Source of the DNA: Candidatus Falkowbacteria bacterium
Lineage (GTDB): Bacteria > Patescibacteriota > Patescibacteriia > UBA11705 > JACRDX01
DNA length: 64,000 nucleotides
Assembly: GCA_043798985.1 (NCBI GenBank)
Contig: JAZDOE010000008.1
Span: 2,332 to 66,331 of the forward strand
Direction: 5' to 3'
A program made the translations under genes and the position numbers. Under the pieces are notes generated by a model. That model saw only the letters and a list, made by a program, of their open reading frames with translations. It was not told the DNA's origin and ran no database searches. Of this stretch, positions 12,509 to 57,512 are shown one piece after another (within the stretch, counting starts at the first letter, position 1; each line of letters opens with the position of its first letter).

Positions 12509-12530
12509 ATATTATTTAAATTTTGTAATA

Positions 12531-14110: not shown

Positions 14111-15847
14111 CTACATCATTTGTACTTCCTTTATATTTAATAATCGCAAACCTTTTGTCAATACGTCTTTAACGTTGTTGGATAAAAATAATCGCGCAGC
14201 CGCCAGCTCTGGGTTTTCGCCAATGACACGGCATTTTTGATAAAAATTGTTAAACAATTGTGACAAATCCAACAAATATTTGCACAAACCGCTTGGGTCT
14301 AACTCTATTTCGGCCTTTTTAACCGCGTCGTTAAACATTCCAATTTTCAAAGCCAATTCGCGCTCAATATTCTCAACCAGCAAATCCAATTTGCAATTCT
14401 TCTGCTTTAATTTAGCGGCAGATGCCTTTTCAAAAAGAGAGTTTATGCGCGCGATTGTATAAAGCACGTATGGGCCAGTATCGCCATCAAACGCAGTCGC
14501 CTTATCAATGTCAAAAACAATCACACTGTTATTTTCATATTTTAAAATCCAAAACTTTATTGCAGCCAACGCGAGTTTCGTTGAAACATCTTCAACTTGC
14601 CGCGTTGACCAATCTACATGCCGCGCGTTTGTTTCTGCTTTTGCTTTTTCCAAAACAGCGTTAAACAACGAATCAAATGAAACAACATTACCCTTTCGCG
14701 ACGCCATGGCGCCCTCTGGCAAAGTGACAAAATCATAGCTAACGTGCGCTTTTTCCTTTTTATCATAGCCTAGCAAGTCCAGCAACTTGAAAATTTGTTT
14801 TAAATACAATGACTGGCGGACATCAACTACGTAAATTGACTTGTCAATTTTATATTTTTCAAACTTTTTAATTCCCAATGGCAAATCTTTGGCGCCATAA
14901 AGAACATTACCGTCAGATTTTATCAAAACCAAAACATCCAAACCATATTCCTGCAAATCAGCTATTAACGCGCCTTCGCTCATTTTTACTTCTTTAATTT
15001 TTCCTTCCTTAACAATACGTGCTAACAATTTTCGCCCCTCTTTTTCCTCTGCGCTTTCCCAAAACCATTCGTCAAATTTATTGCCCAATATTCCATAAAT
15101 CTTATGAAAATCATCCATGCTCCATTTTTTTGTTTTTTTCCAAAGCGCTGTTGCTTTGCGCTCGCCAGCTTCCAAACGCTTTTGTACTTCAGCAATCTCA
15201 ACCATCAACTCTGGTTTTTCCGCCAACAAGTTAACAGCTTCAGAATAAACTTTTCCCAAATACTCCGCCTTATTTTTACCTTTTTCAATAATCAGCTTAG
15301 GATTATTTTTCTCCAAATACCATATACATTTTGCAACATGAACGCCTGTGTCGCCAATATAATTCGCAACAATCACCTTCTTTCCGGCTTCGCGCAAAAT
15401 ATTAACCACTGCCGCGCCAAGGCAGGCATTTCGCAAATGGCCGACATGAAATTCTTTGTGCGTGTTCGGCTGCGAATATTCAACCATAACCCTTTTACCA
15501 CCCGTAGAGACGAGATATATCTCGTCTCTACATTGCCTTGAACACAAAATTTGTTCAAGCAGCCATTTTCGCTTGAAAGTAAAATTCACATACGGCCCCA
15601 CAATCTTCAATTCCTCAATAAAATCTCCGCGCTTGTCATTTCGACCTCGCTTTAGCGAGGGAGAAATCCCTCGTAAAATTTCCGCCCCAACATCCATCGG
15701 AGACTTCTTCATCTTCTTCGCCAAATTAAAACACGGCAAAGCCAAATCACCCATTTTAATATCCGGCGGTGCGACAAAATCGCTTGCGCTGACATCAAAT
15801 CCCGCTTGTTGCAACAATTTTGCCAACTGTTCTTTAATTTTCTGCAT
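14111..15847 (-). CDS. argS: Arginyl-tRNA synthetase; the sequence carries two in-frame repeat insertions.
   Basis: HIGH-type motif EFHVGHLRNACLG and the DALR anticodon-binding C-terminus. Probable ATG start at 15847 (MQKIKEQ); the track ORF begins at a TTG at 15856. Confidence 0.9.
   Translation of the reverse strand: MQKIKEQLAKLLQQAGFDVSASDFVAPPDIKMGDLALPCFNLAKKMKKSPMDVGAEILRGISPSLKRGRNDKRGDFIEELKIVGPYVNFTFKRKWLLEQILCSRQCRDEIYLVSTGGKRVMVEYSQPNTHKEFHVGHLRNACLGAAVVNILREAGKKVIVANYIGDTGVHVAKCIWYLEKNNPKLIIEKGKNKAEYLGKVYSEAVNLLAEKPELMVEIAEVQKRLEAGERKATALWKKTKKWSMDDFHKIYGILGNKFDEWFWESAEEKEGRKLLARIVKEGKIKEVKMSEGALIADLQEYGLDVLVLIKSDGNVLYGAKDLPLGIKKFEKYKIDKSIYVVDVRQSLYLKQIFKLLDLLGYDKKEKAHVSYDFVTLPEGAMASRKGNVVSFDSLFNAVLEKAKAETNARHVDWSTRQVEDVSTKLALAAIKFWILKYENNSVIVFDIDKATAFDGDTGPYVLYTIARINSLFEKASAAKLKQKNCKLDLLVENIERELALKIGMFNDAVKKAEIELDPSGLCKYLLDLSQLFNNFYQKCRVIGENPELAAARLFLSNNVKDVLTKGLRLLNIKEVQMM
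15504..15531. repeat. Family B palindrome, copy B1 (GTAGAGACGAGATATATCTCGTCTCTAC), inside the argS CDS.
   Basis: Perfect 28-nt palindrome translated in frame as CRDEIYLVST. Related copies lie at 54489..54516 and 56058..56083. Confidence 0.65.
15645..15673. repeat. GC-rich double-hairpin segment (CCTCGCTTTAGCGAGG / CGAGGGAGAAATCCCTCG) inside the argS N-terminal region; probably another in-frame insertion.
   Basis: It encodes RGISPSLKRGRNDKRGD between the conserved ArgRS N-terminal blocks. Its GC content is far above the surrounding sequence. Confidence 0.35.
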
Positions 15848-17177: not shown

Positions 17178-20100
17178 TTACATTAAACCTTTTGTTTGTT
17201 CAAGAATCTTTTTTAATTTTTCTTTTGCCTCTGCCAATCTTGTTTTCTCCGCGGCGACAACTTTTTCCGGCGCGTTTTTTATAAATTCAACATTGCTTAA
17301 CTTTCTTTCCAGCCCGCCAATATAATTTTCCAAATTATCTTTTTCCTTTTCCAACCGTTGCTTTTCTTTTCCAGAATCAATCAATCCAGCAAGCGGCATA
17401 TAAATTTCAATTTTTCCAATAATTGCACAGGCCGCTTGCTCTGGCTTTCTTGAAACAAAATTCAAATTCTCAACTTTAGCTAACGCCTTTATTATGTTTG
17501 CCGCGTCTGCCAACGCCTTGCCACCAATAATTTCAATGTCGATTTTTTTTGCCAAATCAACTTTATGTTCAGCTCGCAAATTTCTTATTTTCGTCACAAC
17601 TTCAACAATCGCGGAAAATTCTTTATCAACTTTTTCGTTAATCAACTTCTTATCAACTTTTGGCCATTCCGCAACTATTAAATTCTCGCGAATGCCCCCG
17701 CTTGTCATCCTGAGGCTCTCGAAGGATGACCATATTGCCTCCGTCACAAACGGCGCGAATGGATGCCACAACTTCAACAAATCTTTCAATATACTCAACA
17801 AAATCGCGTCTTTGTTTTTTTCAACTTTGCTGATTTCCAAATACCAATCAGCAAAATCATTCCATGTAAATTCGCGCAACAATTCGCCTGCCGCAGAAAA
17901 ATTATATTCATCTAAAAACTTCGTGACATCTCGTTTTAAACAATTCAACCGCGACAAAATCCATCGATCTGCTAACGTCGCGCCTGTCATTTCGAACCCG
18001 CCCACGGCGGGTGAGAAATCCCTTGTAGTCGTCAGCACGAACCTAGAAATATTCCACAATTTATTAACCAAATTTCTGCATCCCTCAACTTTTTCTTCAA
18101 AAAATCTAATGTCATTGCCCGGCGTTGTGCCAATTAACAATGCCAACCGCGACGCATCTGCTCCATATTTTTCAATCATGTCCAACGGATCAATTCCATT
18201 GCCGCGCGACTTGCTCATCTTTTTGCCATTTTTATCAAGCACCATTCCGTGCAAATAAACTTTTTCAAAAGGAATTTCGCCAAGTGCAAAAAAACTCATC
18301 ATCACCATTCGCGACACCCACAAAGTAATAATTTCATAACCAGTTTCCAACATTTGCGTCGGATGAAACCTTGCAAGATCGCCGGTTTTATTCAGCGTTG
18401 AAAAAGTCCACATTCCGGACGAAAACCAAGTGTCCAAAGAATCTTCATCTTGCTTCAAATTGAACGAACCGCACGAGCAAACTGCCGGCGGTAATTTTAT
18501 ACGCACATCTTTCGCGTTGTCCGGATATGTTAATTTATAAATCTCCAAATCGCTCAAATTTGTATTAAATCCTTTTACCACACGGGCAACATCGCCATGC
18601 GCCACCGCCAAAATTTTCTTGCCTGGATATTTTTTCGCGACTTCATCAAAAAAGGAAAAAACTCGTGATTTTAAACTATCAAATGACTCAATGCCTCGCG
18701 GAGAGTCATGATGCCACGCTTCAAAATCTTTTTTGCGAAACGCGCCCAATTCTTTGTCAGATTTTCCCTCAAACTCACCCATACCAACCTCGCGCAACCG
18801 TTTATCAAAAATTATTTTCTTGATTCCCAATTTGCCTGCCACGATTTTGGCGGTTTCCTGCGCTCTCTTAAAATCCGATGAAAAAATAATGTCTATTTTT
18901 TCTGCAAGCAACTCTTCCGCGACGGAAACAGATTGCGCTTTTCCTTTTTCTGTCAAACCATTTTCTTGATTTTTTATGTCAGAATTTAATTTGTCTTCAA
19001 CGTTGCTGCGCGATTCGCCATGCCGCAAAACGATAATTTCCGTATTTAATTTTTCAGTCACTTTAACTTCATTGCATTTTTCGCAATACCAAACAGGAAT
19101 TCTATGACCAAACCAAATCTGTCGGCTGATGCACCAATCCTGCATATTTTTCATCCAATCCAAATATCTCTTTTCAAATCTCTCCGGAATAAACTCAATC
19201 GCATGTTTTTCAGCGGCTTCAATCGCTTTTTCTTTCAAAGATTTGTTGCCTAATTTTTTAATCTTTTTATCAACCGCGACAAACCATTGTTTGCTTGGCA
19301 ATGGCTCAATCGCTGTGCCACAACGATAACAAATGGATAAATTATTATCTATTTCTTCTTCTTTTTCCAACAAATTCTGCGCGCGCAACCTTTCAACAAC
19401 CATTTGGCGCGCGCCCAAAACATCTTTTCCAGAATATTCTCCAAAATTTTCTTTAATTTTTCCATTCTCATCAATTACTTTTACAACTTCCAAATTGTTC
19501 GCCCGCGCCATTTGCCAATCAACAATGGAATGCGCGGGCGTTACGCCGAGCGCTCCGGTGCCGAAATTCATATCAACCTGCCAATCACCAATGATTTTAA
19601 TTTTAAGCGGCACACCGACAAAATCAACGCTAAATTCTTTGCCAATATATTTTTTATAGCGCTCGTCTTTCGGATTTACCGCGACAGCAGTGTCGCCAAG
19701 TTTTGTTTCCGGCCGAGTCGTGGCAATTGTAATCGGAAAATTTTTATTGTATTTAAAAGTATAAAGTTTTGCTTTTTGCTCCTGATATTCCACTTCGTCA
19801 TCGGCCAAAGTTGACTGGCATCGCGGGCACCAATTTACCACTCGTTCGCCACGATAAATCACACCTGAATCATACATATCCGCGAACATTTTTGCCACAG
19901 CCTTTATCCGCGGCTCATCTAATGTAAAAGCCTGCCGCGACCAATCCAAAGACGCGCCCATTTTCTTTATTTGATGCAAAATGGTTGTTTGCGTTTCTCT
20001 CAAAAACTCCCAAACTTTTTCCAAAAATTTTTCGCGCCCCAAATCATGCCGCGTCTTTTTTTCTTCTTTCCATAATTGCTTTTCCACAACATTTTGCGTG

Positions 20101-20369
20101 GCAATTGCCGCGTGATCAGTTCCGGGTAACCACAGCGCCCTAAATCCATTCATCCGTTTGTATCGAATTATCAAATCTTCAATCGCCAAAGTCAACGCTT
20201 GGCCCATGTGTAATTTTGCGGTAATATTCGGCGGCGGCAAAATAATTGTGTATGGTTTTGCCTTTTTCGGCAAATTCAAATTGTCTGGATTAAAAAATCC
20301 ACTTTCTTCCCAATCCTTGTAAATTTTATCTTCAAAATCTTTGGGAATGTACGCCTTTGGAATCTCCAT
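17178..20369 (-). CDS. valS: Valyl-tRNA synthetase with an inserted histidine-phosphatase (PGAM-like) domain of about 200 aa.
   Basis: PNITAKLHMGQALT (HIGH), the editing domain and the KMSKS region are present. Between the two zinc-knuckle Cys pairs (WYCEKC ... CSCG) lies a full His-phosphatase fold with VLRHGESRSN and AVAHGDVARV. Confidence 0.9.
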   Translation of the reverse strand: MEIPKAYIPKDFEDKIYKDWEESGFFNPDNLNLPKKAKPYTIILPPPNITAKLHMGQALTLAIEDLIIRYKRMNGFRALWLPGTDHAAIATQNVVEKQLWKEEKKTRHDLGREKFLEKVWEFLRETQTTILHQIKKMGASLDWSRQAFTLDEPRIKAVAKMFADMYDSGVIYRGERVVNWCPRCQSTLADDEVEYQEQKAKLYTFKYNKNFPITIATTRPETKLGDTAVAVNPKDERYKKYIGKEFSVDFVGVPLKIKIIGDWQVDMNFGTGALGVTPAHSIVDWQMARANNLEVVKVIDENGKIKENFGEYSGKDVLGARQMVVERLRAQNLLEKEEEIDNNLSICYRCGTAIEPLPSKQWFVAVDKKIKKLGNKSLKEKAIEAAEKHAIEFIPERFEKRYLDWMKNMQDWCISRQIWFGHRIPVWYCEKCNEVKVTEKLNTEIIVLRHGESRSNVEDKLNSDIKNQENGLTEKGKAQSVSVAEELLAEKIDIIFSSDFKRAQETAKIVAGKLGIKKIIFDKRLREVGMGEFEGKSDKELGAFRKKDFEAWHHDSPRGIESFDSLKSRVFSFFDEVAKKYPGKKILAVAHGDVARVVKGFNTNLSDLEIYKLTYPDNAKDVRIKLPPAVCSCGSFNLKQDEDSLDTWFSSGMWTFSTLNKTGDLARFHPTQMLETGYEIITLWVSRMVMMSFFALGEIPFEKVYLHGMVLDKNGKKMSKSRGNGIDPLDMIEKYGADASRLALLIGTTPGNDIRFFEEKVEGCRNLVNKLWNISRFVLTTTRDFSPAVGGFEMTGATLADRWILSRLNCLKRDVTKFLDEYNFSAAGELLREFTWNDFADWYLEISKVEKNKDAILLSILKDLLKLWHPFAPFVTEAIWSSFESLRMTSGGIRENLIVAEWPKVDKKLINEKVDKEFSAIVEVVTKIRNLRAEHKVDLAKKIDIEIIGGKALADAANIIKALAKVENLNFVSRKPEQAACAIIGKIEIYMPLAGLIDSGKEKQRLEKEKDNLENYIGGLERKLSNVEFIKNAPEKVVAAEKTRLAEAKEKLKKILEQTKGLM
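17704..17730. repeat. Family A palindromic element, copy A1 (GTCATCCTGAGGCTCTCGAAGGATGAC), inside the valS CDS.
   Basis: Hairpin with stem GTCATCC/GGATGAC, translated in frame as ESLRMTSG. Related copies lie at 52292, 55329 and 56273. Confidence 0.65.
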
Positions 20370-21729: not shown

Positions 21730-21806
21730 TGGTGGTCGCACCTGGGCTCGAACCAGGGACCTTTCGGATGTGAACCGAACGCTCTAACCAGCTGAGCTAT
21801 GCGACC
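21730..21806 (-). tRNA. tRNA-Val (anticodon CAC), with CCA encoded.
   Basis: Reverse complement GGTCGCATAGCTCAGCTGGTTAGAGCGTTCGGTTCACATCCGAAAGGTCCCTGGTTCGAGCCCAGGTGCGACCACCA. Confidence 0.8.
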
Positions 21807-22038
21807 TTTGTAAATATTTTTCTACTCGTTTCCTTAAATATCCTCGGCCAAAACCCGTTTTTAATTGTCGCTCCCTTTTCATTGCATCGTCCTTCACTAA
21901 ACATACCTCGTAATACGCCATCTCTATGCTCCCCATCCTGATCGTAGTGTGCGTTTTGCCCGAGAGATGCTCTGCCAATCTCCTTTCTAAGTTCCCTGTA
22001 CATCCAACATAAAACCTATCTAAATCTTTGCTATACAT
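21784..22038 (-). CDS. Small GIY-YIG nuclease-domain protein (UPF0213 / YhbQ-like, about 84 aa). Its reading frame runs into the 5' part of tRNA-Val(CAC).
   Basis: From the internal ATG at 22038: MYSKDLDRFYVGCTGNLERRLAEHLSGKTHTTIRMGSIEMAYYEVCLVKDDAMKRERQLKTGFGRGYLRKRV, which shows the GIY..YIG..R..H..E fold hallmarks. The stop codon is the TAG in the tRNA D-loop (GGTTAG). Confidence 0.6.
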   Translation of the reverse strand: MYSKDLDRFYVGCTGNLERRLAEHLSGKTHTTIRMGSIEMAYYEVCLVKDDAMKRERQLKTGFGRGYLRKRVEKYLQRSHSSAG

Positions 22039-22045
22039 ACCACAT

Positions 22046-22162
22046 ATCTTTTGCGCTCCCCGCCCAAAGCCCGAAGGGCATTGTGGCGGGCCCGCCAGAC
22101 TGCGAAGCTGTCGGCGGGTAACCAGCCCCAAGGGGGCCCCTTCGGGGCTGAGCTATGCGACC
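22046..22162. mobile_element. GC-rich structured element followed by a 16-nt duplicate of the tRNA-Val(CAC) 5' end. It forms the terminal portion of a tRNA-linked insertion.
   Basis: CCCCGCCCAAAGCCCGAAGGGCATTGTGGCGGGCCCGCC...CCCCAAGGGGGCCCCTTCGGGGC, then GCTGAGCTATGCGACC, the reverse complement of tRNA nucleotides 1-16. The motif is homologous to 44692..44897 and 46596..46672. Confidence 0.45.
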
Positions 22163-22782: not shown

Positions 22783-22960
22783 TTGGTGGGCACAGATGGA
22801 CTTGAACCATCGACCCCCGCCTTACCCGCCTGCCAGAGTCTGTGGGCGCAACTGGACTCGAACCAGTGACCCCCGCCTTATAAGGGCGATGCTCTAACCA
22901 GCTGAGCTATGCGCCCACAGACGGCGGGCAGGTAAGGGCGGTGCGGCTATGTGCCCATTA
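22783..22960 (-). other. Composite tRNA locus: a complete tRNA is embedded between the two halves of a tRNA-like sequence. The outer 5' acceptor strand GGGCACA and the outer 3' half with T-arm and CCA are complementary, and the flanks are imperfect inverted repeats.
   Basis: The reverse complement of 22783..22846 is ...GGCGGGGGTCGATGGTTCAAGTCCATCTGTGCCCACCA, a perfect T-arm plus acceptor plus CCA. The reverse complement of 22948..22954 is GGGCACA. Flanks CCGCCTTACCCGCCTGCC and GGCGGGCAGGTAAGGGCGG are near inverted repeats. Confidence 0.3.
22843..22916 (-). tRNA. tRNA with anticodon TAT, Ile-type and unusual in bacteria. It is the inner gene of the composite locus.
   Basis: Reverse complement GGGCGCATAGCTCAGCTGGTTAGAGCATCGCCCTTATAAGGCGGGGGTCACTGGTTCGAGTCCAGTTGCGCCCA. 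Anticodon stem TCGCC/GGCGG, loop CTTATAA. Confidence 0.55.
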
Positions 22961-40837: not shown

Positions 40838-40965
40838 CAATCGTAAAATAATTTTGAATTTCCAATTTCGAATTTTGATTGAATTCCGAAATCTGAATTT
40901 TGAAACATTCAAACATTCATACATTCAACGTTGAATCAAAATTCAAAATTCTAATTTCAAAATTT
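40838..40965. repeat. AT-rich intergenic repeat cluster (gaattt/aaattc, ttcgaa-type short repeats) upstream of rpmB.
   Basis: Related in style to the repeats at 48291..48410, 51283..51400 and 52141..52200. Confidence 0.4.
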
Positions 40966-44619: not shown

Positions 44620-44691
44620 TCCTCTCGGAAGGAATCGAACCTTCATCGCAGGTTCCGGAAACCTGTGTTCTATCCATTGAACTACGAGAGG
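44620..44691 (-). tRNA. tRNA-Arg (anticodon CCG).
   Basis: Reverse complement CCTCTCGTAGTTCAATGGATAGAACACAGGTTTCCGGAACCTGCGATGAAGGTTCGATTCCTTCCGAGAGGA. Confidence 0.75.
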
Positions 44692-44897
44692 GTAAATTGT
44701 GTTCCCCGCCCAAAGCCCAAATGGCATTGTGGCGGGCCCGCCTGCTTGCCGCCCTTGGCGGCTGGCGGCGGGTATCCATTGAACTACGAGAGGGTAAATT
44801 GTGTTCCCCGCCCAAAGCCCAAAGGGCATTGTGGCGGGCCCGCCTGCTTGCCGCCCTTGGCGGCTGGCGGCGGGTATCCATTGAACTACGGGAGGGG
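44692..44897. repeat. Two tandem 102-bp direct repeats, each made of a GC-rich structured element plus a 22-nt copy of the tRNA-Arg 5' end (acceptor and D-arm).
   Basis: TATCCATTGAACTACGAGAGGG occurs at about 44671, 44773 and 44875. The GC segment shares CCCCGCCCAAAGCCC-AA-GGCATTGTGGCGGGCCCGCC with 22046..22085. The four overlapping ORFs in the track are artefacts of the repeat. Confidence 0.7.
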
Positions 44898-51400: not shown

Positions 51401-52465
51401 TTAAAATATTTTCTGTAAGAACCTATATATTCCCAATTGAACCGGTTGGTAAATTTTTTCATAAGTCCCGACATATTCAACAATTTCCGCAGTCGGCGAA
51501 AATCCCATTTTGAACTTCGTGAATCCCGCCCAGTTTTCCAGTCTTCCGGTTGCATCTTGCGGCGCGACACCCCAAAAATCATAAAACCAAAATCCGTCAC
51601 GTTTCGCGTCTTTTATTGCCTGCCATTGCAACAAATATGGAGCCATGGCATTGCGAAAATCATGGTCAGACGCGCCAAATAAATATGTTGCCGTGTTATC
51701 CCAAAAAATCACAATATTTGCCGCGATAATTTTTCCTTCCAACTTTGCAACATACAATTTGACAAATGGAACTTTCAGAAGTTCCTTAAAATAATCTTGT
51801 CCGTAAAATTTTATTTTCTGTCGCGCTTCTGTTTTTTTCTCAAGTTCGTAAAATTCTTTAAACATTAAATTGTCCACCACAATTTCAACCCCGCGTTTTT
51901 TTGCCACGCCAATGTTGTATCTGGTTTTTTCGTGCATTTGTTTTAACAAATTTTCTTCGTCCCCGCGCAAATCCAACATTAACGTATGTCTCGGTAAAAT
52001 ATCTTTTTCGCATTTTACAAACCCCATTTCATCAAAAATCCCACACCAACTCTTATCTTCTGAAAACGGGTCAATCTGAAACGCCATCGCCCCTTCCTGC
52101 TTCGCAATCTTATCTATTTCCTGCATGATCATTTTTGTGATTTCGGATTTAGAATTTGTTTCGGATTTCGGATTTCGAATTTCGGACTTTATAACTGGAC
52201 CTCGTGGAGAGTAAAGAATGCTTCGTCCCAATTTCGCTTTTGATTCAAACAAAAACACGACAGCGCACCATTCTTTATCACTTTGAGCGCTGTCGCCCTG
52301 AGCTTGTCGAGGGGTCACCTCAACAATCAATCTCCAAATTTTTTCATTTTGCGTATTCAAAAAATCACCCCATTCCCATGATTGAGTAAATCCGCCGGTA
52401 TCATTTTCTTTCACAAAATCATTCCAGCGCTCTTTATCCTCAATTGTTGCGTAGCTAATCGTCAT
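51401..52465 (-). CDS. FemAB-family protein (peptidoglycan interpeptide-bridge aminoacyltransferase-like). It carries two in-frame repeat insertions.
   Basis: FemAB-type sequence SWEWGDFLNTQ...ILYSPRGP... The inserted segments encode KSEIRNPKSETNSKSEITK (the atttcgg repeat, 52141..52200) and PRQAQGDSAQ (family A, 52292..52318). Confidence 0.55.
   Translation of the reverse strand: MTISYATIEDKERWNDFVKENDTGGFTQSWEWGDFLNTQNEKIWRLIVEVTPRQAQGDSAQSDKEWCAVVFLFESKAKLGRSILYSPRGPVIKSEIRNPKSETNSKSEITKMIMQEIDKIAKQEGAMAFQIDPFSEDKSWCGIFDEMGFVKCEKDILPRHTLMLDLRGDEENLLKQMHEKTRYNIGVAKKRGVEIVVDNLMFKEFYELEKKTEARQKIKFYGQDYFKELLKVPFVKLYVAKLEGKIIAANIVIFWDNTATYLFGASDHDFRNAMAPYLLQWQAIKDAKRDGFWFYDFWGVAPQDATGRLENWAGFTKFKMGFSPTAEIVEYVGTYEKIYQPVQLGIYRFLQKIF
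52292..52318. repeat. Family A palindromic element, copy A2 (variant GTCGCCCTGAGCTTGTCGAGGGGTCAC), inside the FemAB-like CDS.
   Basis: Same architecture as 17704..17730, with compensatory stem changes. Confidence 0.5.
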
Positions 52466-52588
52466 ATACAAAAATAATACACCGCAACCAATATTTTTTC
52501 AATCTTTTTCAAAAATTAAAATAGGGGCAACTGTTTCAGTTGCCCCTGACCAAGAGACCTAGAATCCGAGAGCCCTAGTGTCTAGACA

Positions 52589-53665
52589 CTACTTGCCCGC
52601 CTCTACCGAGGCGGGCGAGAGCGCGACCAACCCACCCGCGAAACTGCCACGAGCACCATCAAGACTCTGACTGCCATAGAAGTAAGCGTCATCACCATCG
52701 GCAAAGCAAAAGAGCGACCAGCCGCGCCACGCAAGCGCTGCCATGTCATAGCACGGCGTCTTGTTGTCCCGCAGCAGTTCTGCCGCGTACATACTCATTG
52801 CTGCCAGCGTATCCAATCCGCCTGCAAGCATGAACATTTCCGGCAAGGTTTCCATCTGCTCTCTGTCTGCATTGATGGAATATCCCTGCAGCGCGGTCGG
52901 GAAGTAAATCCCCACCACCGGCTCCTTACTTGCCGCTTCCAACACTCTCTCATGTCTGCTTCCCGCCCAGATTGTCACTTCTCCGGCAAGCTGCCCCGTG
53001 ATATTGTTGTGGAAGGGACGGTTGGGAAACGCCTTCGTGTATGCTCTTGCCACTGTTGGCACAAGCACCTTGTCCAGCTTTGCCCCGTAGTTTGCCGCCG
53101 TCACGCCAAGCCCTGCCGGAATGCAGAACGGGTACCATGCGCCTTTCAGCACATTCTTAACCGTTTCATCTGCTTCAATCTTCTGCACTAAAGCGTTGAT
53201 GCGCAGTGCGAACTCTTCGGCAGACACAAACTCCAACTTCTCGTCGACAAATGCTTCTTTCGCAAGCACCAATCTTTCGGCAAAGGACAACCGCTCTATC
53301 CGCGTCGGATAGTAACCGTAATTCGCGTCGCATACCGAGCTTCTCATTCCGGTCGGTGGGATTCTGCGGCCATTCTTGTCATAGACCAGCGTTGGCGTCG
53401 GCTCTATCACCATCTCGTTTGGCCCCATGAAAATCGCGTGCATTTCACCCGACAGCAAACAATCAACCACCGATTCCCCAAGCTTGTTCTCCAACAGCTC
53501 AAGATGCCCGAGCGTTCTCTGAGGATACTTGGCAGGATCTCCGGACCGCTTCATCTGCGTGAGCGTTGCCAGCACCGCATCTGCGCCACCGTGCAAAGCC
53601 ACGTAATCCACGATATCCGCGACCGTCAACTTCTTCCACCCGTCACAACTCATAGCATCCTCCAT
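52589..53665 (-). CDS. Conserved hypothetical protein, GC-rich, paralog 1 of a duplicated gene.
   Basis: 358 aa. The C-terminal 260 aa are about 85-90% identical to 54516..55466 (for example LEAASKEPVVGIYFPTALQGYSINADREQM, AAELLRDNKTPCYDMAALAWRGWSL). No family recognised. Confidence 0.5.
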   Translation of the reverse strand: MEDAMSCDGWKKLTVADIVDYVALHGGADAVLATLTQMKRSGDPAKYPQRTLGHLELLENKLGESVVDCLLSGEMHAIFMGPNEMVIEPTPTLVYDKNGRRIPPTGMRSSVCDANYGYYPTRIERLSFAERLVLAKEAFVDEKLEFVSAEEFALRINALVQKIEADETVKNVLKGAWYPFCIPAGLGVTAANYGAKLDKVLVPTVARAYTKAFPNRPFHNNITGQLAGEVTIWAGSRHERVLEAASKEPVVGIYFPTALQGYSINADREQMETLPEMFMLAGGLDTLAAMSMYAAELLRDNKTPCYDMAALAWRGWSLFCFADGDDAYFYGSQSLDGARGSFAGGLVALSPASVEAGK

Positions 53666-54401: not shown

Positions 54402-54488
54402 ACATACAAATAATACATCACAACCAATATTTTTTCAATCTTCTGAAATTAAAATAGGGAATGTTGTTTCAACATTCCCAAATTCTCC

Positions 54489-54516
54489 GTAGAGCCGAGA
54501 TATATCTCGGCTCTAC
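54489..54516. repeat. Family B palindrome, copy B2 (GTAGAGCCGAGATATATCTCGGCTCTAC), abutting the stop codon of paralog 2.
   Basis: Perfect palindrome; differs from B1 by a compensatory A/T to C/G change. Confidence 0.6.
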
Positions 54517-55466
54517 TACGCGAGGGCGACCAAACCGCCGGCGATATAGTCATAAGCACCCGCAAGACGCCGACCGTCACGGAAGAAGGCAGAAACATCA
54601 TAAGCATAGCAATCGAGCGACCAGCCGCGCCAAGCGAGCGCTGCCATGTCATAGCACGGCGTCTTGTTGTCGCGCAGCAGTTCTGCCGCGTACATACTCA
54701 TTGCGCACATGGTATCCAACCCACCTGCAAGCATGAACATTTCCGGCAAGGTTGCCATCTGCTCTCTGTCTGCATTGATGGAATATCCCTGCAGCGCGGT
54801 CGGGAAGTAAATCCCCACCACCGGCTCTTTGCTTGCCGCTTCCAGCACCCTCTCATGCCTGCTTCCCTGCCAAATCGTCACTTCTCCGGAAAGCTGACCG
54901 TTGAGATTGTTGTGGAAGGGACGATTGGGAAACGCCTTCGTGTATGCTCTTGCCACTGCCGACAAAAGCACCTTGTCCATCTTATCCCCGTAGTTTGCCG
55001 CCGTCACTCCGAGCCCTCCGGGGATGACGAACGGGTACCATGCGCCTTTCAGCACGTTCTTAATCGTTTCGTCCGCCTCAATCTTCATTACCAGCGCATT
55101 GATGCGCTCAAAAAACTGCTCAACGGACACGAACGTCAGCGACTTGTCATTGAACACCTCCTGCGCCAATTTCAGCTTCGCGCCAAACGGCAACTGCTCA
55201 AGTCGCGTCGGGCAGTAACCATAGTTCGCGTCGCACACCGAACTTTTCATCCCCTGCGGCGGGATTCTGCGCCCGTTCTTGTCATAGACCAGCGTCGGCG
55301 TCGGCTCTATCACCACCTCATGCGTCTTGTCACCCTGAGGCTCTCGAAGGGCGACCACTCTGACCGTCAGCTCGCCGTTCGCAATTTTGCGCGCAATTTC
55401 CGTGCCACCGAGACGATTCAACAATGCTTCGTCCTCATTGCGCATCCAGTCACCATACTTTCCCAT
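54516..55466 (-). CDS. Conserved hypothetical protein, GC-rich, paralog 2; its N-terminus contains a family A palindrome insertion.
   Basis: 316 aa; VVALREPQGDKTHEV is encoded by 55329..55355. Confidence 0.5.
   Translation of the reverse strand: MGKYGDWMRNEDEALLNRLGGTEIARKIANGELTVRVVALREPQGDKTHEVVIEPTPTLVYDKNGRRIPPQGMKSSVCDANYGYCPTRLEQLPFGAKLKLAQEVFNDKSLTFVSVEQFFERINALVMKIEADETIKNVLKGAWYPFVIPGGLGVTAANYGDKMDKVLLSAVARAYTKAFPNRPFHNNLNGQLSGEVTIWQGSRHERVLEAASKEPVVGIYFPTALQGYSINADREQMATLPEMFMLAGGLDTMCAMSMYAAELLRDNKTPCYDMAALAWRGWSLDCYAYDVSAFFRDGRRLAGAYDYIAGGLVALA
55329..55355. repeat. Family A palindromic element, copy A3 (GTCACCCTGAGGCTCTCGAAGGGCGAC).
   Basis: In-frame within paralog 2. Confidence 0.55.
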
Positions 55467-55624: not shown

Positions 55625-56893
55625 TTACACAATTTTCCTGCGCAACAATGTCATTTCCGGAACATTTTTATTTATTTCCAAATAAATTTCCTGCTTTTGC
55701 CCACCATGTGCTTCTTTTATCCGTTTCATATCTTTATCAAAAATCTTTGTAATTTTTTGTTTAAAAACTTTACCCACTGGTGGTACGAACTCAATCTCAT
55801 CACCCACAAAAATCTGATTATGCACCAAAACTTTAATTATTCGCAGATTAGTAACATTCGAATGATTCGTAGCTTCGTAGCCACCAACAACTTCGCCGCA
55901 AAACTCCCATTCGCACGTTTCATGGCTCGCGTCTGTTTTTTGCCCTTGCCACGCCGAAGCTCCGCGAAGGCGGGCGCATTTTTCCTTTCCAAATAAAAAT
56001 CCTGTTGTAAATCCGCGGTTCTGATATTTTTTTAATTCTTTAATATAATATTTATCCAGAGACGAGACATGCCTCGTCTCTACAAGAGAATCAATTGCCG
56101 CGCGATAAACTTTTGTCACGCCGGCAACATAATAAATACTTTTTGACCGGCCCTCAATTTTAAACGACGAAATGCCGGCTTTTGCCAAATCTCTCAAATA
56201 TTCAACCAAACACAAATCTTTTGAATTCATAATATAACTCCCGCTATCATCCTCTTCAATCAACAACACTCTGTCATGCTGAGGCTCTCGAAGCATCTTA
56301 TAACTCCATCTGCATGGCTGCGTGCAATCACCGAGATTTGCGCTTCGTTTTGTAAAAAACTGCGACAACAAACAACGGCCAGAATATGACATGCACATTG
56401 CGCCATGGACAAAACATTCCAGCTCAACTTTTGGCGCGGCTTTGTGGATTTTTTTAATTTCTTCCAGCGTGGTCTCGCGCGCCAAAATGACGCGCGAGAC
56501 ACCTTGCCGCGCCCAAAATTTCGCAGACTCTGAATTTATACAATTTGCTTGCGTTGAAAGATGGATATTCGCTTTTGGCCAGATCTTTTTTATTAAAACC
56601 AACACACCCGGATCAGAAACAACTAAAGCATCGGGTTTTACTGTCCGCAACCATTTAATATGTTCTGCCAATTTTGCGAAATGTTTTTCACGCGGAAAAA
56701 TGTTCAAAGTTATGTAGACTTTTTTATTGCGCGAGCGCGCGAAGTCAATTCCTTGATGCAATGTTTTTAAATTAAAATCATTCACTCGCGCGCGCAAAGA
56801 AAAATCAGGGATGCCGCAGTAAACCACGTCAGCCCCAAATTCAATCGCGTATTTTAATTTTTTCAAACTCCCTGCTGGTGAAATCAGCTCCAT
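55625..56893 (-). CDS. Peptidase U32 family protein (PrtC / RlhA-like). It carries at least four in-frame repeat insertions.
   Basis: MELISPAGSLKKLKYAIEFGADVVYCGIPDFSLRARVNDFNLKTLHQGIDFARSRNKKVYITLN is canonical U32. Insertions: C2 at 55840..55883 (TNHSNVTNLRIIK), D2 at 55949..55976 (ARLRGASAWQG), B3 at 56058..56083 (ETRHVSSL) and A4 at 56273..56297 (MLREPQHD). Confidence 0.7.
   Translation of the reverse strand: MELISPAGSLKKLKYAIEFGADVVYCGIPDFSLRARVNDFNLKTLHQGIDFARSRNKKVYITLNIFPREKHFAKLAEHIKWLRTVKPDALVVSDPGVLVLIKKIWPKANIHLSTQANCINSESAKFWARQGVSRVILARETTLEEIKKIHKAAPKVELECFVHGAMCMSYSGRCLLSQFFTKRSANLGDCTQPCRWSYKMLREPQHDRVLLIEEDDSGSYIMNSKDLCLVEYLRDLAKAGISSFKIEGRSKSIYYVAGVTKVYRAAIDSLVETRHVSSLDKYYIKELKKYQNRGFTTGFLFGKEKCARLRGASAWQGQKTDASHETCEWEFCGEVVGGYEATNHSNVTNLRIIKVLVHNQIFVGDEIEFVPPVGKVFKQKITKIFDKDMKRIKEAHGGQKQEIYLEINKNVPEMTLLRRKIV
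55840..55883. repeat. Copy C2 of the 44-nt repeat, in frame inside the U32 CDS.
   Basis: TTCGCAGATTAGTAACATTCGAATGATTCGTAGCTTCGTAGCCA; compare C1 at 12531..12574. Confidence 0.6.
55949..55976. repeat. Family D GC hairpin, copy D2 (CCACGCCGAAGCTCCGCGAAGGCGGGCG).
   Basis: Shares GCCGAAGC...CGAAGGC with 58059..58086 in ileS. Confidence 0.45.
56058..56083. repeat. Family B palindrome, copy B3 (AGAGACGAGACATGCCTCGTCTCTAC variant).
   Basis: Same arms as B1 with a different central loop (ACATGC versus ATATAT). Confidence 0.5.
56273..56297. repeat. Family A palindromic element, copy A4 (GTCATGCTGAGGCTCTCGAAGCATC).
   Basis: The central CTGAGGCTCTCGAAG is conserved; the stem is changed compensatorily (ATGC/GCAT). 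Confidence 0.5.
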
Positions 56894-56897
56894 ATTT

Positions 56898-57512
56898 TTA
56901 CGCGCTCCACCACGCCGCAATGCCAGCGAAAAATTCCCGTATTTTAAATTTCCACATTCCTGAATAATCGCTCAAATCAGACGCCACGCCAACCGCGTCA
57001 ACGCCCAGTTTATTGCAAACATACAACGCTCGTCCAAGATGCGCGCTTTGTGTCACCAAAATCGCGTCATTGATTTTAAAAACATTTTTCAAACGGTTGC
57101 ACGTGTCAAAAGTTGAAAGTCCAAGCGGATCCAAAATTAAATTATCGCTTTTCAACCCATGCGTGACAGCGAAATTCACCATTGCTTTTATCTCGTCGTG
57201 CGTCAAATCTGCGCTATCTCCGCTCATTAAAATTTTTTTGACCTTGCCTTCTTTATAAAGTTCCATTGCCATTAAAATTCTGTCTCTCAAAAAATCCCCG
57301 GGCCAATCTTTAAACTTTAAGCCGGCGCCGAACACAACTGCCACTTGCTTTTTCGGCGCCGAATCAAGCGTATAAATTTTATCAGCAATCTTGCGGTTTA
57401 TTAAAAAAAGAATTCCTGCAACAATCAACGCCAATAAAAAAATCAAAAAAATAAATCGTTTTGCCCATTTTTTCCACCTTTGCGGCCTGATTGTCTGTAT
57501 TATGGGATCCAC
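56898..57512 (-). CDS. SanA/YdcF (DUF218) family membrane protein.
   Basis: N-terminal TM helix, then KQVAVVFGAGL...ILMSGDSADLTHDEIKAMVNFAV... typical of DUF218. Confidence 0.65.
   Translation of the reverse strand: MDPIIQTIRPQRWKKWAKRFIFLIFLLALIVAGILFLINRKIADKIYTLDSAPKKQVAVVFGAGLKFKDWPGDFLRDRILMAMELYKEGKVKKILMSGDSADLTHDEIKAMVNFAVTHGLKSDNLILDPLGLSTFDTCNRLKNVFKINDAILVTQSAHLGRALYVCNKLGVDAVGVASDLSDYSGMWKFKIREFFAGIAAWWSA

Follow-up and report, generated by a model that had tools for sequence, protein, structure and literature searches.

How does the same short palindrome come to lie inside four unrelated protein-coding genes, one of which encodes valyl-tRNA synthetase? The question is raised by a 64-kb stretch of DNA from Candidatus Falkowbacteria bacterium, of the candidate phyla radiation (CPR, or Patescibacteria) (contig JAZDOE010000008.1, positions 2,332 to 66,331; the whole stretch is referred to as the window). 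An earlier note, made from the sequence alone, had described there a palindromic repeat, family A, inserted in frame in valS, a FemAB-like gene, an uncharacterised gene called paralog 2 and a U32 peptidase gene. Our analysis indicates that family A probably represents solo copies of a short selfish hairpin family, similar in kind to repetitive extragenic palindromes (REPs), that have been kept in protein loops.

The four sites were confirmed. An exact 15-mer core, CTGAGGCTCTCGAAG, occurs three times in the window (at 17710, 55335 and 56279), while dinucleotide-preserving shuffles gave a mean of 0.42 core matches with up to 3 mismatches tolerated. The single core that had been attributed to all copies is therefore shared by copies 1, 3 and 4, but not by the copy at 52292, whose core CTGAGCTTGTCGAGG lies 4 mismatches from CTGAGGCTCTCGAAG; this copy belongs to a sister subfamily. 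A covariance model (R1), trained on copies from outside the window and run over the 64 kb with filters off, recovered precisely the four copies, all on the + strand, and nothing else convincing. By this model they are members of a CTGAG-N5-CGAAG hairpin family with complementary arms (E = 1e-13 to 8e-5). All four lie within intact minus-strand open reading frames (ORFs), and the element is, as had been proposed, defined at the nucleotide level, common to unrelated genes and, at variable or loop regions of the proteins, translated into a short peptide.

The same hairpin was found in many other bacteria. A genome scan with the exact 17-mer CCTGAGGCTCTCGAAGG returned at least 120 genome stretches from many phyla, the matches listed including Chloroflexota, Acidobacteriota, Bacteroidota, Armatimonadota, Treponema, Deltaproteobacteria, Planctomycetota, a cyanobacterium and Peribacteria, and the 27-nt form of the window type, GTCAnnCTGAGGCTCTCGAAGnnTGAC, was present in 111 metagenome stretches. 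Two external sets were thus available, a generic 17-mer set (120 loci listed) and a 27-mer GTCA…TGAC set (111 loci), giving 231 loci together. Only 25% and 12% of the external copies in the two sets fell in open frames of at least 600 nt, compared with 78% of random positions; in-frame coding copies were nevertheless seen in a racemase gene, in PheRS-beta at the linker between domains, and in a further FemAB enzyme. T-runs follow some external copies, and many have A-run/T-run flanks resembling bidirectional terminators. The family is pan-bacterial and normally intergenic, and the idea that family A is a peculiarity of CPR genomes had to be abandoned, given a 17-mer in at least 120 stretches of many phyla and its mainly intergenic position there.

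The repeat unit is about 27 nt long, with variable complementary arms (GTCAnn/nnTGAC in the window) around a conserved 15-nt core that folds into C-G and U-A pairs, a 3-bp GAG/CUC helix, a variable triloop and a 2-nt GA bulge. Hairpins with other cores retain the inner GAG/CTC helix and vary in the triloop (GCT, GCA, GTT), and a scrambled control pattern yielded zero hairpins. The arms differ between copies yet pair far more than shuffled partners, as judged from the distribution of contiguous arm pairs with no pre-selection. At the free nn/nn positions of the 27-mer set, 98 of 114 pairs were Watson-Crick, ~13 were G.U and ~3 were mismatched, the wobbles being almost confined to the CTGAGG strand (about 14 vs 1). 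Further covariation statistics were not used as primary evidence because the alignment had been pre-selected for at least 4 arm pairs. A core built on tandem sheared G.A pairs, as in a kink-turn, was dropped because the 3-bp GAG/CUC helix with its GA bulge suits the loop variants and the minimum free energy (MFE) fold better; likenesses to the hammerhead, attC, the T-arm and the sarcin-ricin loop were dropped because the core positions do not match.

Searches of known RNA families and of the literature gave no name for this hairpin. At Rfam gathering thresholds the window yielded tRNAs only, and in 16 hairpin loci Rfam gave one tRNA and one Flavo-1 match and no family for the hairpin, as did an E-value scan of one locus. 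The Flavo-1 match is in Aquimarina (L054, 4069-4206), where the apical loop of the Flavo-1 RNA (RF01705) is taken up by the hairpin, lying on the opposite strand, and measures 53 nt against 4 in the consensus. A full-text literature search for the core sequences found no papers, and a search on palindromic in-frame insertion in CPR found nothing relevant.

A candidate partner enzyme emerged when every ORF of 90 aa or longer in the 231 loci was clustered. The largest cross-locus cluster was a stand-alone GIY-YIG protein of ~100 aa (PF01541, E = 5e-19) of the UPF0213/YhbQ family, prokaryotic and Slx1-like (E = 9e-22 to 1zg2 and 2e-17 to 1ywl). A GIY-YIG profile search found it in 33 loci, namely 28 of the 111 in the GTCA…TGAC set and 5 of the 120 in the generic set (among the matches listed). 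These fall into 24 groups at 90% identity, with a median pairwise identity of 47% and a GC content of 0.33-0.61. In 30 of the 33 a hairpin lies within 300 nt of the GIY-YIG domain, whereas random placement averaged 7.4 and never exceeded 15. Usually a forward hairpin stands upstream of the nuclease gene and a reverse hairpin downstream, and in five related loci with unrelated contexts the similarity starts at the forward hairpin, spans the ORF and ends exactly at the reverse hairpin. These five loci define a cassette of ~0.45 kb bounded by inverted hairpins, an arrangement of the nuclease gene seen in many lineages. In this five-locus lineage the nuclease ORF ends inside the hairpin (…GHPSRASG, then the stop), and some nuclease genes elsewhere take the TGA of the hairpin's GGTGAC as their stop codon. 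Hairpin arrays with half-unit tandem expansions surround nuclease genes, and a hairpin with a CTTGT core also flanks a GIY-YIG gene (L222).

No recurrent transposase or RAYT cluster was present among the ORFs of the 231 loci, and neither NCBIfam nor PADLOC assigned the nuclease to a specific family or to defence. A search of a plasmid collection gave one partial, unannotated match. [quoted passage not shown]

External hairpins often occur in arrays (L002, L116, L100). We also observed tandem half- or whole-hairpin expansions with periods of 14, 16, 19 and 23 nt (L128 vs L229; L100 and L016, both Treponema; L035), and the tandem copy number varies between otherwise near-identical contigs. These expansions suggest repeated breakage or slippage at a fixed point of the hairpin.

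Within the window, the copies differ in how well they have been preserved. The arms of copy 1 pair perfectly (GTCATC/GATGAC), and those of copy 3 show one A.C mismatch on the + strand, which is a G.U on the mRNA strand. Both are predicted to form a bulged hairpin of -10 to -14 kcal/mol (MFE), with values of -12.2 to -12.8 kcal/mol for copy 1 and of -10.3 kcal/mol (+ strand) and -14.4 kcal/mol (- strand) for copy 3. Copy 4 has retained ATGC/GCAT alone, copy 2 has one mismatch and one wobble in its arms, and the hairpins of these two are no better than those of shuffled sequence (z = +0.2 and +0.6, respectively). Both are degenerate or decayed, copy 2 being an older copy in decay. The statement that the arms stay complementary thus applies only in part, fully to copy 1 and to a lesser degree to the others. 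Because two of the four are degenerate, the selection on a hairpin that had been read from the window copies is unsupported by them alone; arm covariation is instead seen at more than 230 external loci.

The note's different reading frames came down to two, an LREPQ-type frame used three times and an FESLR frame used once. Read from the sequence, a unit with full arms leaves 3 of 6 frames open, 2 of those 3 being antisense to the CTGAGG strand; one closed frame terminates at the TGA of GGTGAC. About 90% of the window is coding, the minus strand accounting for 91% of the coding bases, and the chance of finding 4 of 4 copies in coding sequence (CDS) is accordingly ~0.67 and that of one shared orientation ~0.13-0.2, so that neither is significant alone.

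Table. Family A copies, their host genes and the GIY-YIG ORF of the window (coordinates in the window; CM, covariance model R1).
Feature	Coordinates	Strand	Description	CM match
Copy 1, in valS	17704..17730	+ (antisense to gene)	intact 27-nt unit GTCATC-CTGAGGCTCTCGAAG-GATGAC; peptide (W)SSFESLRMT	46.2 bits, E = 1e-13
Copy 2, in FemAB-like gene	52292..52318	+	sister-subfamily unit GTCGCC-CTGAGCTTGTCGAGG-GGTCAC; peptide VTPRQAQGD	E = 8e-5
Copy 3, in paralog 2	55329..55355	+	27-nt unit GTCACC-CTGAGGCTCTCGAAG-GGCGAC; peptide VALREPQGD	E = 6e-11
Copy 4, in U32 peptidase gene	56273..56297	+	truncated/degenerate unit (GTC)ATG-CTGAGGCTCTCGAAG-CAT(C); peptide MLREPQHD	local match 56276-56296, E = 2e-6
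valS	17178-20369	minus	intact ORF, hosts copy 1	
FemAB-like gene	51401-52471	minus	intact ORF, hosts copy 2	
Paralog 2	54516-55466	minus	intact ORF, hosts copy 3	
U32 peptidase gene	55625-56920	minus	intact ORF, hosts copy 4	
GIY-YIG ORF	21784-22040	minus	small, divergent, UPF0213/YhbQ-like; between tRNA genes	

Alignment of the host proteins bore out the expectation that close orthologs of ValRS and paralog 2 are without the element. In ValRS, 21 residues separate the conserved Trp of …TEAIW from the WP motif, compared with 12-13 in most orthologs (net +8-9 codons), and the copy begins directly after the Trp codon. The valS gene of a 79% relative is without an insert at this site, and that of an 80% relative (L233) carries there an insert formed by another, GC-rich hairpin. 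Paralog 2 reads TVRVV-ALREPQGDKTH-EVVIEP where its closest homologs read TVRVV-G-NEVVIEP, a net gain of 9 codons as counted against paralog 1 and P0361/P0362. In the FemAB-like gene, copy 2 is contained in an insert by which the gene exceeds the family baseline by 12 codons; an 82% relative (L234) has the orthologous copy, which is decaying in both lineages, and a 79% relative (L235) carries at the copy 2 site an unrelated GC-rich hairpin of equal total length. Among CPR orthologs the ValRS and FemAB sites vary in length. The junctions in valS and in the FemAB-like gene show no visible direct duplication, in flanks that have diverged far enough from those of empty-site relatives to hide one.

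The GC-rich hairpins of these two relatives (L233/L235: CCGCC-GAAT-GGCGG, CCCGCC-AAA-GGCGGG and TCCCGCC-GATT-GGCGGGA) stand exactly at the family A sites of the window. Different hairpin families at the same sites suggest either hot spots or the replacement of one element by another.

The U32 peptidase gene differs from the other three hosts. Its MLREPQH aligns to a conserved L-x-E-E-K-R-P segment with zero net length change, and its CRW-to-HG/SG spacing of 20 aa equals that of the shortest orthologs. In-frame insertion, as originally described, therefore holds for valS, paralog 2 and the FemAB-like gene but not for U32, where the length is that of the orthologs. Structural mapping, proposed as a test of surface-loop placement, was carried out for U32 and fits a loop position: in an AlphaFold (AF2) model with a mean predicted local distance difference test (pLDDT) score of 83, the copy 4 segment falls within a long coil whose pLDDT is below 50. 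A sequence search of the PDB with the U32 host gave no match, and with the FemAB host gave matches that do not reach the insert site.

Other repeats and rearrangements lie in or near the host genes. Besides family A, valS contains an in-frame repeat of a second family, AGGGATTTCTCACCCGCCGTGGGCGGGTTCGAAATGACAGG (17982-18023), translated as RDFSPAVGGFEMTG; the 82% relative has a nearly identical unit of ~40 nt in its FemAB gene, where it reads RDFSPAMGGVEMTS, and the second family shares the end TCGAA.ATGAC with family A. The ValRS also has an internal histidine-phosphatase domain (PF00300), common to many CPR ValRS proteins of ~1060-1110 aa and absent from the ~880-aa forms. Two paralogs of an uncharacterised family (52589-53665 and 54516-55466) flank ruvA; over 300 nt at the 3' ends the two share 86% identity, but their 5' ends, upstream of a VIEPTPTLVYDKNGRRIPP motif, are unrelated, and copy 3 is near the point where their similarity ends. 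A near-perfect GTAG-tagged palindrome of 30 nt, CCGTAGAGACGAGATATATCTCGTCTCTAC, occurs at 15502-15531, 54487-54516 and 56054-56083, the third copy being inside the U32 CDS (…ETRHVSSLD…), and looks like a classical GTAG-type REP. AT-rich repeats of the TTTCGGATTTCGAATTT type are found at 40853, 48310, 48342, 51354 and 52135, and also at 12518 and 55827, in intergenic spacers and in coding sequence; one gives SEIRNPKSETNSKSEI at residues ~97-112 of the FemAB-like gene, a second variable site, where relatives have other inserts.

The window has a GIY-YIG ORF of its own (tblastn E = 7e-7; profile E = 3e-9 at 21858-22020; hhalign probability 96.7%, E = 4e-10). It lies about 4 kb from copy 1, and the window copies are all solo. 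The ORF is a candidate relative of the hairpin-associated nucleases, and its link to the four copies is circumstantial because no family A hairpin flanks it. A tRNA 5' segment, GGTCGCATAGCTCAGC, is present twice beside it (around 22160 and 21806; 21784-22160 region, minus strand); the upstream segment is broken by a 22-nt GC hairpin, and the 3' end of the ORF runs into the tRNA gene. The arrangement looks like a site-specific insertion beside a tRNA. Upstream of the ORF is a GC-rich 53-nt repeat (22051-22103) that recurs, at 44697-44749 and 44799-44851, in a 102-nt tandem duplication (44671-44874) by the 44.5-45.1 kb tRNA cluster, where a sequence similar to a tRNA 5' half accompanies it. A tRNA 3' half is also partly duplicated (22786-22824 vs 22842-22880) directly downstream of the tRNA at 22843-22916.

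How might solo hairpins have reached coding sequence? Enzymes of the Slx1 type are structure-specific nucleases, and a hairpin substrate accords with this. In the scheme that we favour, such a nuclease would recognise one strand of the hairpin and drive the copying of both the cassette and solo hairpins. In the Falkowbacteria genome new copies would land mostly in genes, since about 90% of it is coding. The survivors would be those in variable loops or linkers that use one of the 3 of 6 stop-free frames, and they would persist because 27 nt, or 9 codons, preserves the frame. They would be translated as passenger peptides (xLREPQxD or SxFESLRxT) and then decay, as copies 2 and 4 have done. No benefit to the host proteins is implied. 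We put forward more tentatively, as a proposal that may well prove wrong, that UPF0213/YhbQ nucleases are the cognate enzymes of these pan-bacterial conserved-core hairpins, forming a REP/RAYT-like selfish system whose solo hairpins invade the coding sequences of gene-dense CPR genomes and remodel the loops of essential proteins.

Several observations weigh against this scheme. The generic set has the nuclease in 5 of 120 loci among the matches listed, and most hairpins are therefore far from such a gene. The nuclease loci were selected by the hairpin rather than from all UPF0213 genes, and the link between nuclease and hairpin, including any mobilisation, is one of association, drawn from sequence. 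Twelve distant GIY-YIG relatives in a viral (phage) collection have no hairpins nearby, a result that is uninformative for the bacterial subfamily. No family A hairpin detectable by R1 flanks the window's own GIY-YIG ORF; other repeats do. In the generic set the excess of G.U pairs on one strand is only slight, at 22 vs 14 among the matches listed. Finally, simple insertion does not explain the U32 copy, a same-length replacement, and the second repeat family of valS is likewise without net length change relative to orthologs. Taken with the exchange of hairpins at the FemAB site, these two cases hint at patch replacement rather than simple insertion.

The main rival is that the hairpins are the target of the nuclease and not its cargo. 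They would then be older, independent elements, terminator-like or regulatory, into or beside which a selfish homing-type GIY-YIG gene inserts, as IS1397 or IS110-family elements do at REPs; the nuclease would not spread solo hairpins, and the coding copies of the window would have arrived by another route. Adjacency alone fails to separate cargo from target, and the scarcity of the nuclease in the generic set (5 of 120, matches listed), the terminator-like flanks of many copies, the copy in the Flavo-1 apical loop and the window GIY-YIG gene within a duplicated tRNA 5' segment, which resembles site-specific insertion behaviour, are all consistent with it. The conserved block in five unrelated contexts, however, takes in both hairpins and ends at their outer edges, which fits hairpins as the ends of the element, and nuclease genes are surrounded by arrays with half-unit tandem expansions. 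A host terminator, moreover, would be expected neither to hold an identical 17-mer across phyla nor to lie in frame in ValRS, PheRS-beta, racemase and FemAB genes. We consider this explanation unlikely, though worth keeping in view.

Less probable still is a functional structured element, RNA or single-stranded DNA of the CUGAGG strand, such as a terminator, an mRNA stabiliser or a protein-binding site, with the window copies under selection, for example in antisense transcripts or through translation pausing. Such a role would account for the bias of G.U wobbles to the CTGAGG strand in the 27-mer set, the conserved bulged-helix core with its varying triloop, the three identical cores of the window and the T-runs after some external copies. 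The strand-specific tolerance of G.T is, however, also expected if a nuclease recognises single-stranded DNA, and the bias is weak in the generic set. A functional role for the window copies is unlikely because the window mRNA bears the complementary strand and because copies 2 and 4 have lost the fold; decay of the FemAB copy is seen in both lineages, the element is missing from the close relatives of valS and paralog 2, and the hairpin has no Rfam family.

That there is no element at all, the repeats being ancestral or convergent coding sequence or an artefact of assembly or contamination, is very improbable: although the U32 peptide aligns column by column with a conserved segment that in some orthologs reads L-R-E, and the sites in valS and FemAB vary in length anyway, there are three exact 15-mers in unrelated genes, the same 27-mer with covarying arms in isolate genomes and metagenomes of many phyla, an orthologous copy in an independent assembly (L234) and intact host ORFs.

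Selfish hairpins kept in protein loops, the reading that we prefer, would extend to CPR/Patescibacteria the phenomenon of selfish DNA inside protein-coding genes, represented by Rickettsia palindromic elements (RPEs) and some REPs, and family A would be one concrete source for the many lineage-specific loop insertions of CPR proteins. The conserved 17-nt core that bounds UPF0213 cassettes is a testable candidate substrate for a widespread nuclease family with solved structures; were the link causal, a second partnership of a repeat with a domesticated nuclease would stand beside REP/RAYT. For annotators, the hairpin units yield spurious peptides (…LREPQGD…, …FESLRMT…, …LRLSKGD…) and ORF extensions.

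Among known systems, the closest parallel offered by the earlier note was with RPEs, reportedly described by Ogata et al. in 2000 and taken up in PMC3733652. RPEs are roughly 100-150 bp long and confined to Rickettsia, and we know of no nuclease or transposase associated with them. Like RPEs, family A is a palindromic repeat set at the DNA level, found in frame in housekeeping genes including those of aminoacyl-tRNA synthetases and giving a passenger peptide in loops that is absent from orthologs. The parallel holds for in-frame insertion and absence from orthologs (valS, paralog 2, FemAB-like gene), but not for U32, which has no insertion, nor for length and range, the family A unit being 27 nt (net inserts 24-36 nt) and pan-bacterial.

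MITEs such as Neisseria Correia/NEMIS and those of Coxiella (PMC5896051, PMC3184786) are likewise small non-autonomous repeats that add peptides when in ORFs. They differ in being about 100-400 bp long, with terminal inverted repeats and target-site duplications, whereas family A is a single 27-nt hairpin; its arms are inverted repeats, and no duplication was seen at the valS and FemAB junctions, where the flanks have diverged. Free-standing GIY-YIG homing endonuclease genes, such as seg of phage T4, resemble the nuclease as small, selfish-looking genes in unrelated contexts, but they have DNA-binding domains, move by gene conversion into one cognate site and have no dispersed hairpin repeats.

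A further resemblance is to the REP/REPIN-RAYT systems, or REPtrons (PMC3733652, PMC3116915), in which hairpins of 20-40 bp, in arrays or inverted pairs, flank a single small nuclease gene and solo copies are scattered, some of them intragenic. One strand appears to matter in both, and the cassette with its inverted hairpins parallels REPs flanking RAYT genes. Members of the REP superfamilies are marked by GTAG or CGTC at one end and have a stem of at least 8-9 bp with a loop of 4-5 nt (PMC3733652); family A, in contrast, has neither tag, the window copies starting T-GTCA and ending TGAC, and its arms of 6-7 bp enclose a conserved structured core of 13-15 nt. That core is identical across phyla, whereas REPs are lineage-specific, and the accompanying gene encodes a GIY-YIG nuclease (UPF0213) in place of an IS200/IS605-type Y1 transposase. 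Family A is best filed as a REP-like kind of repeat, set apart by its conserved core and by a candidate enzyme that differs from that of REPs.

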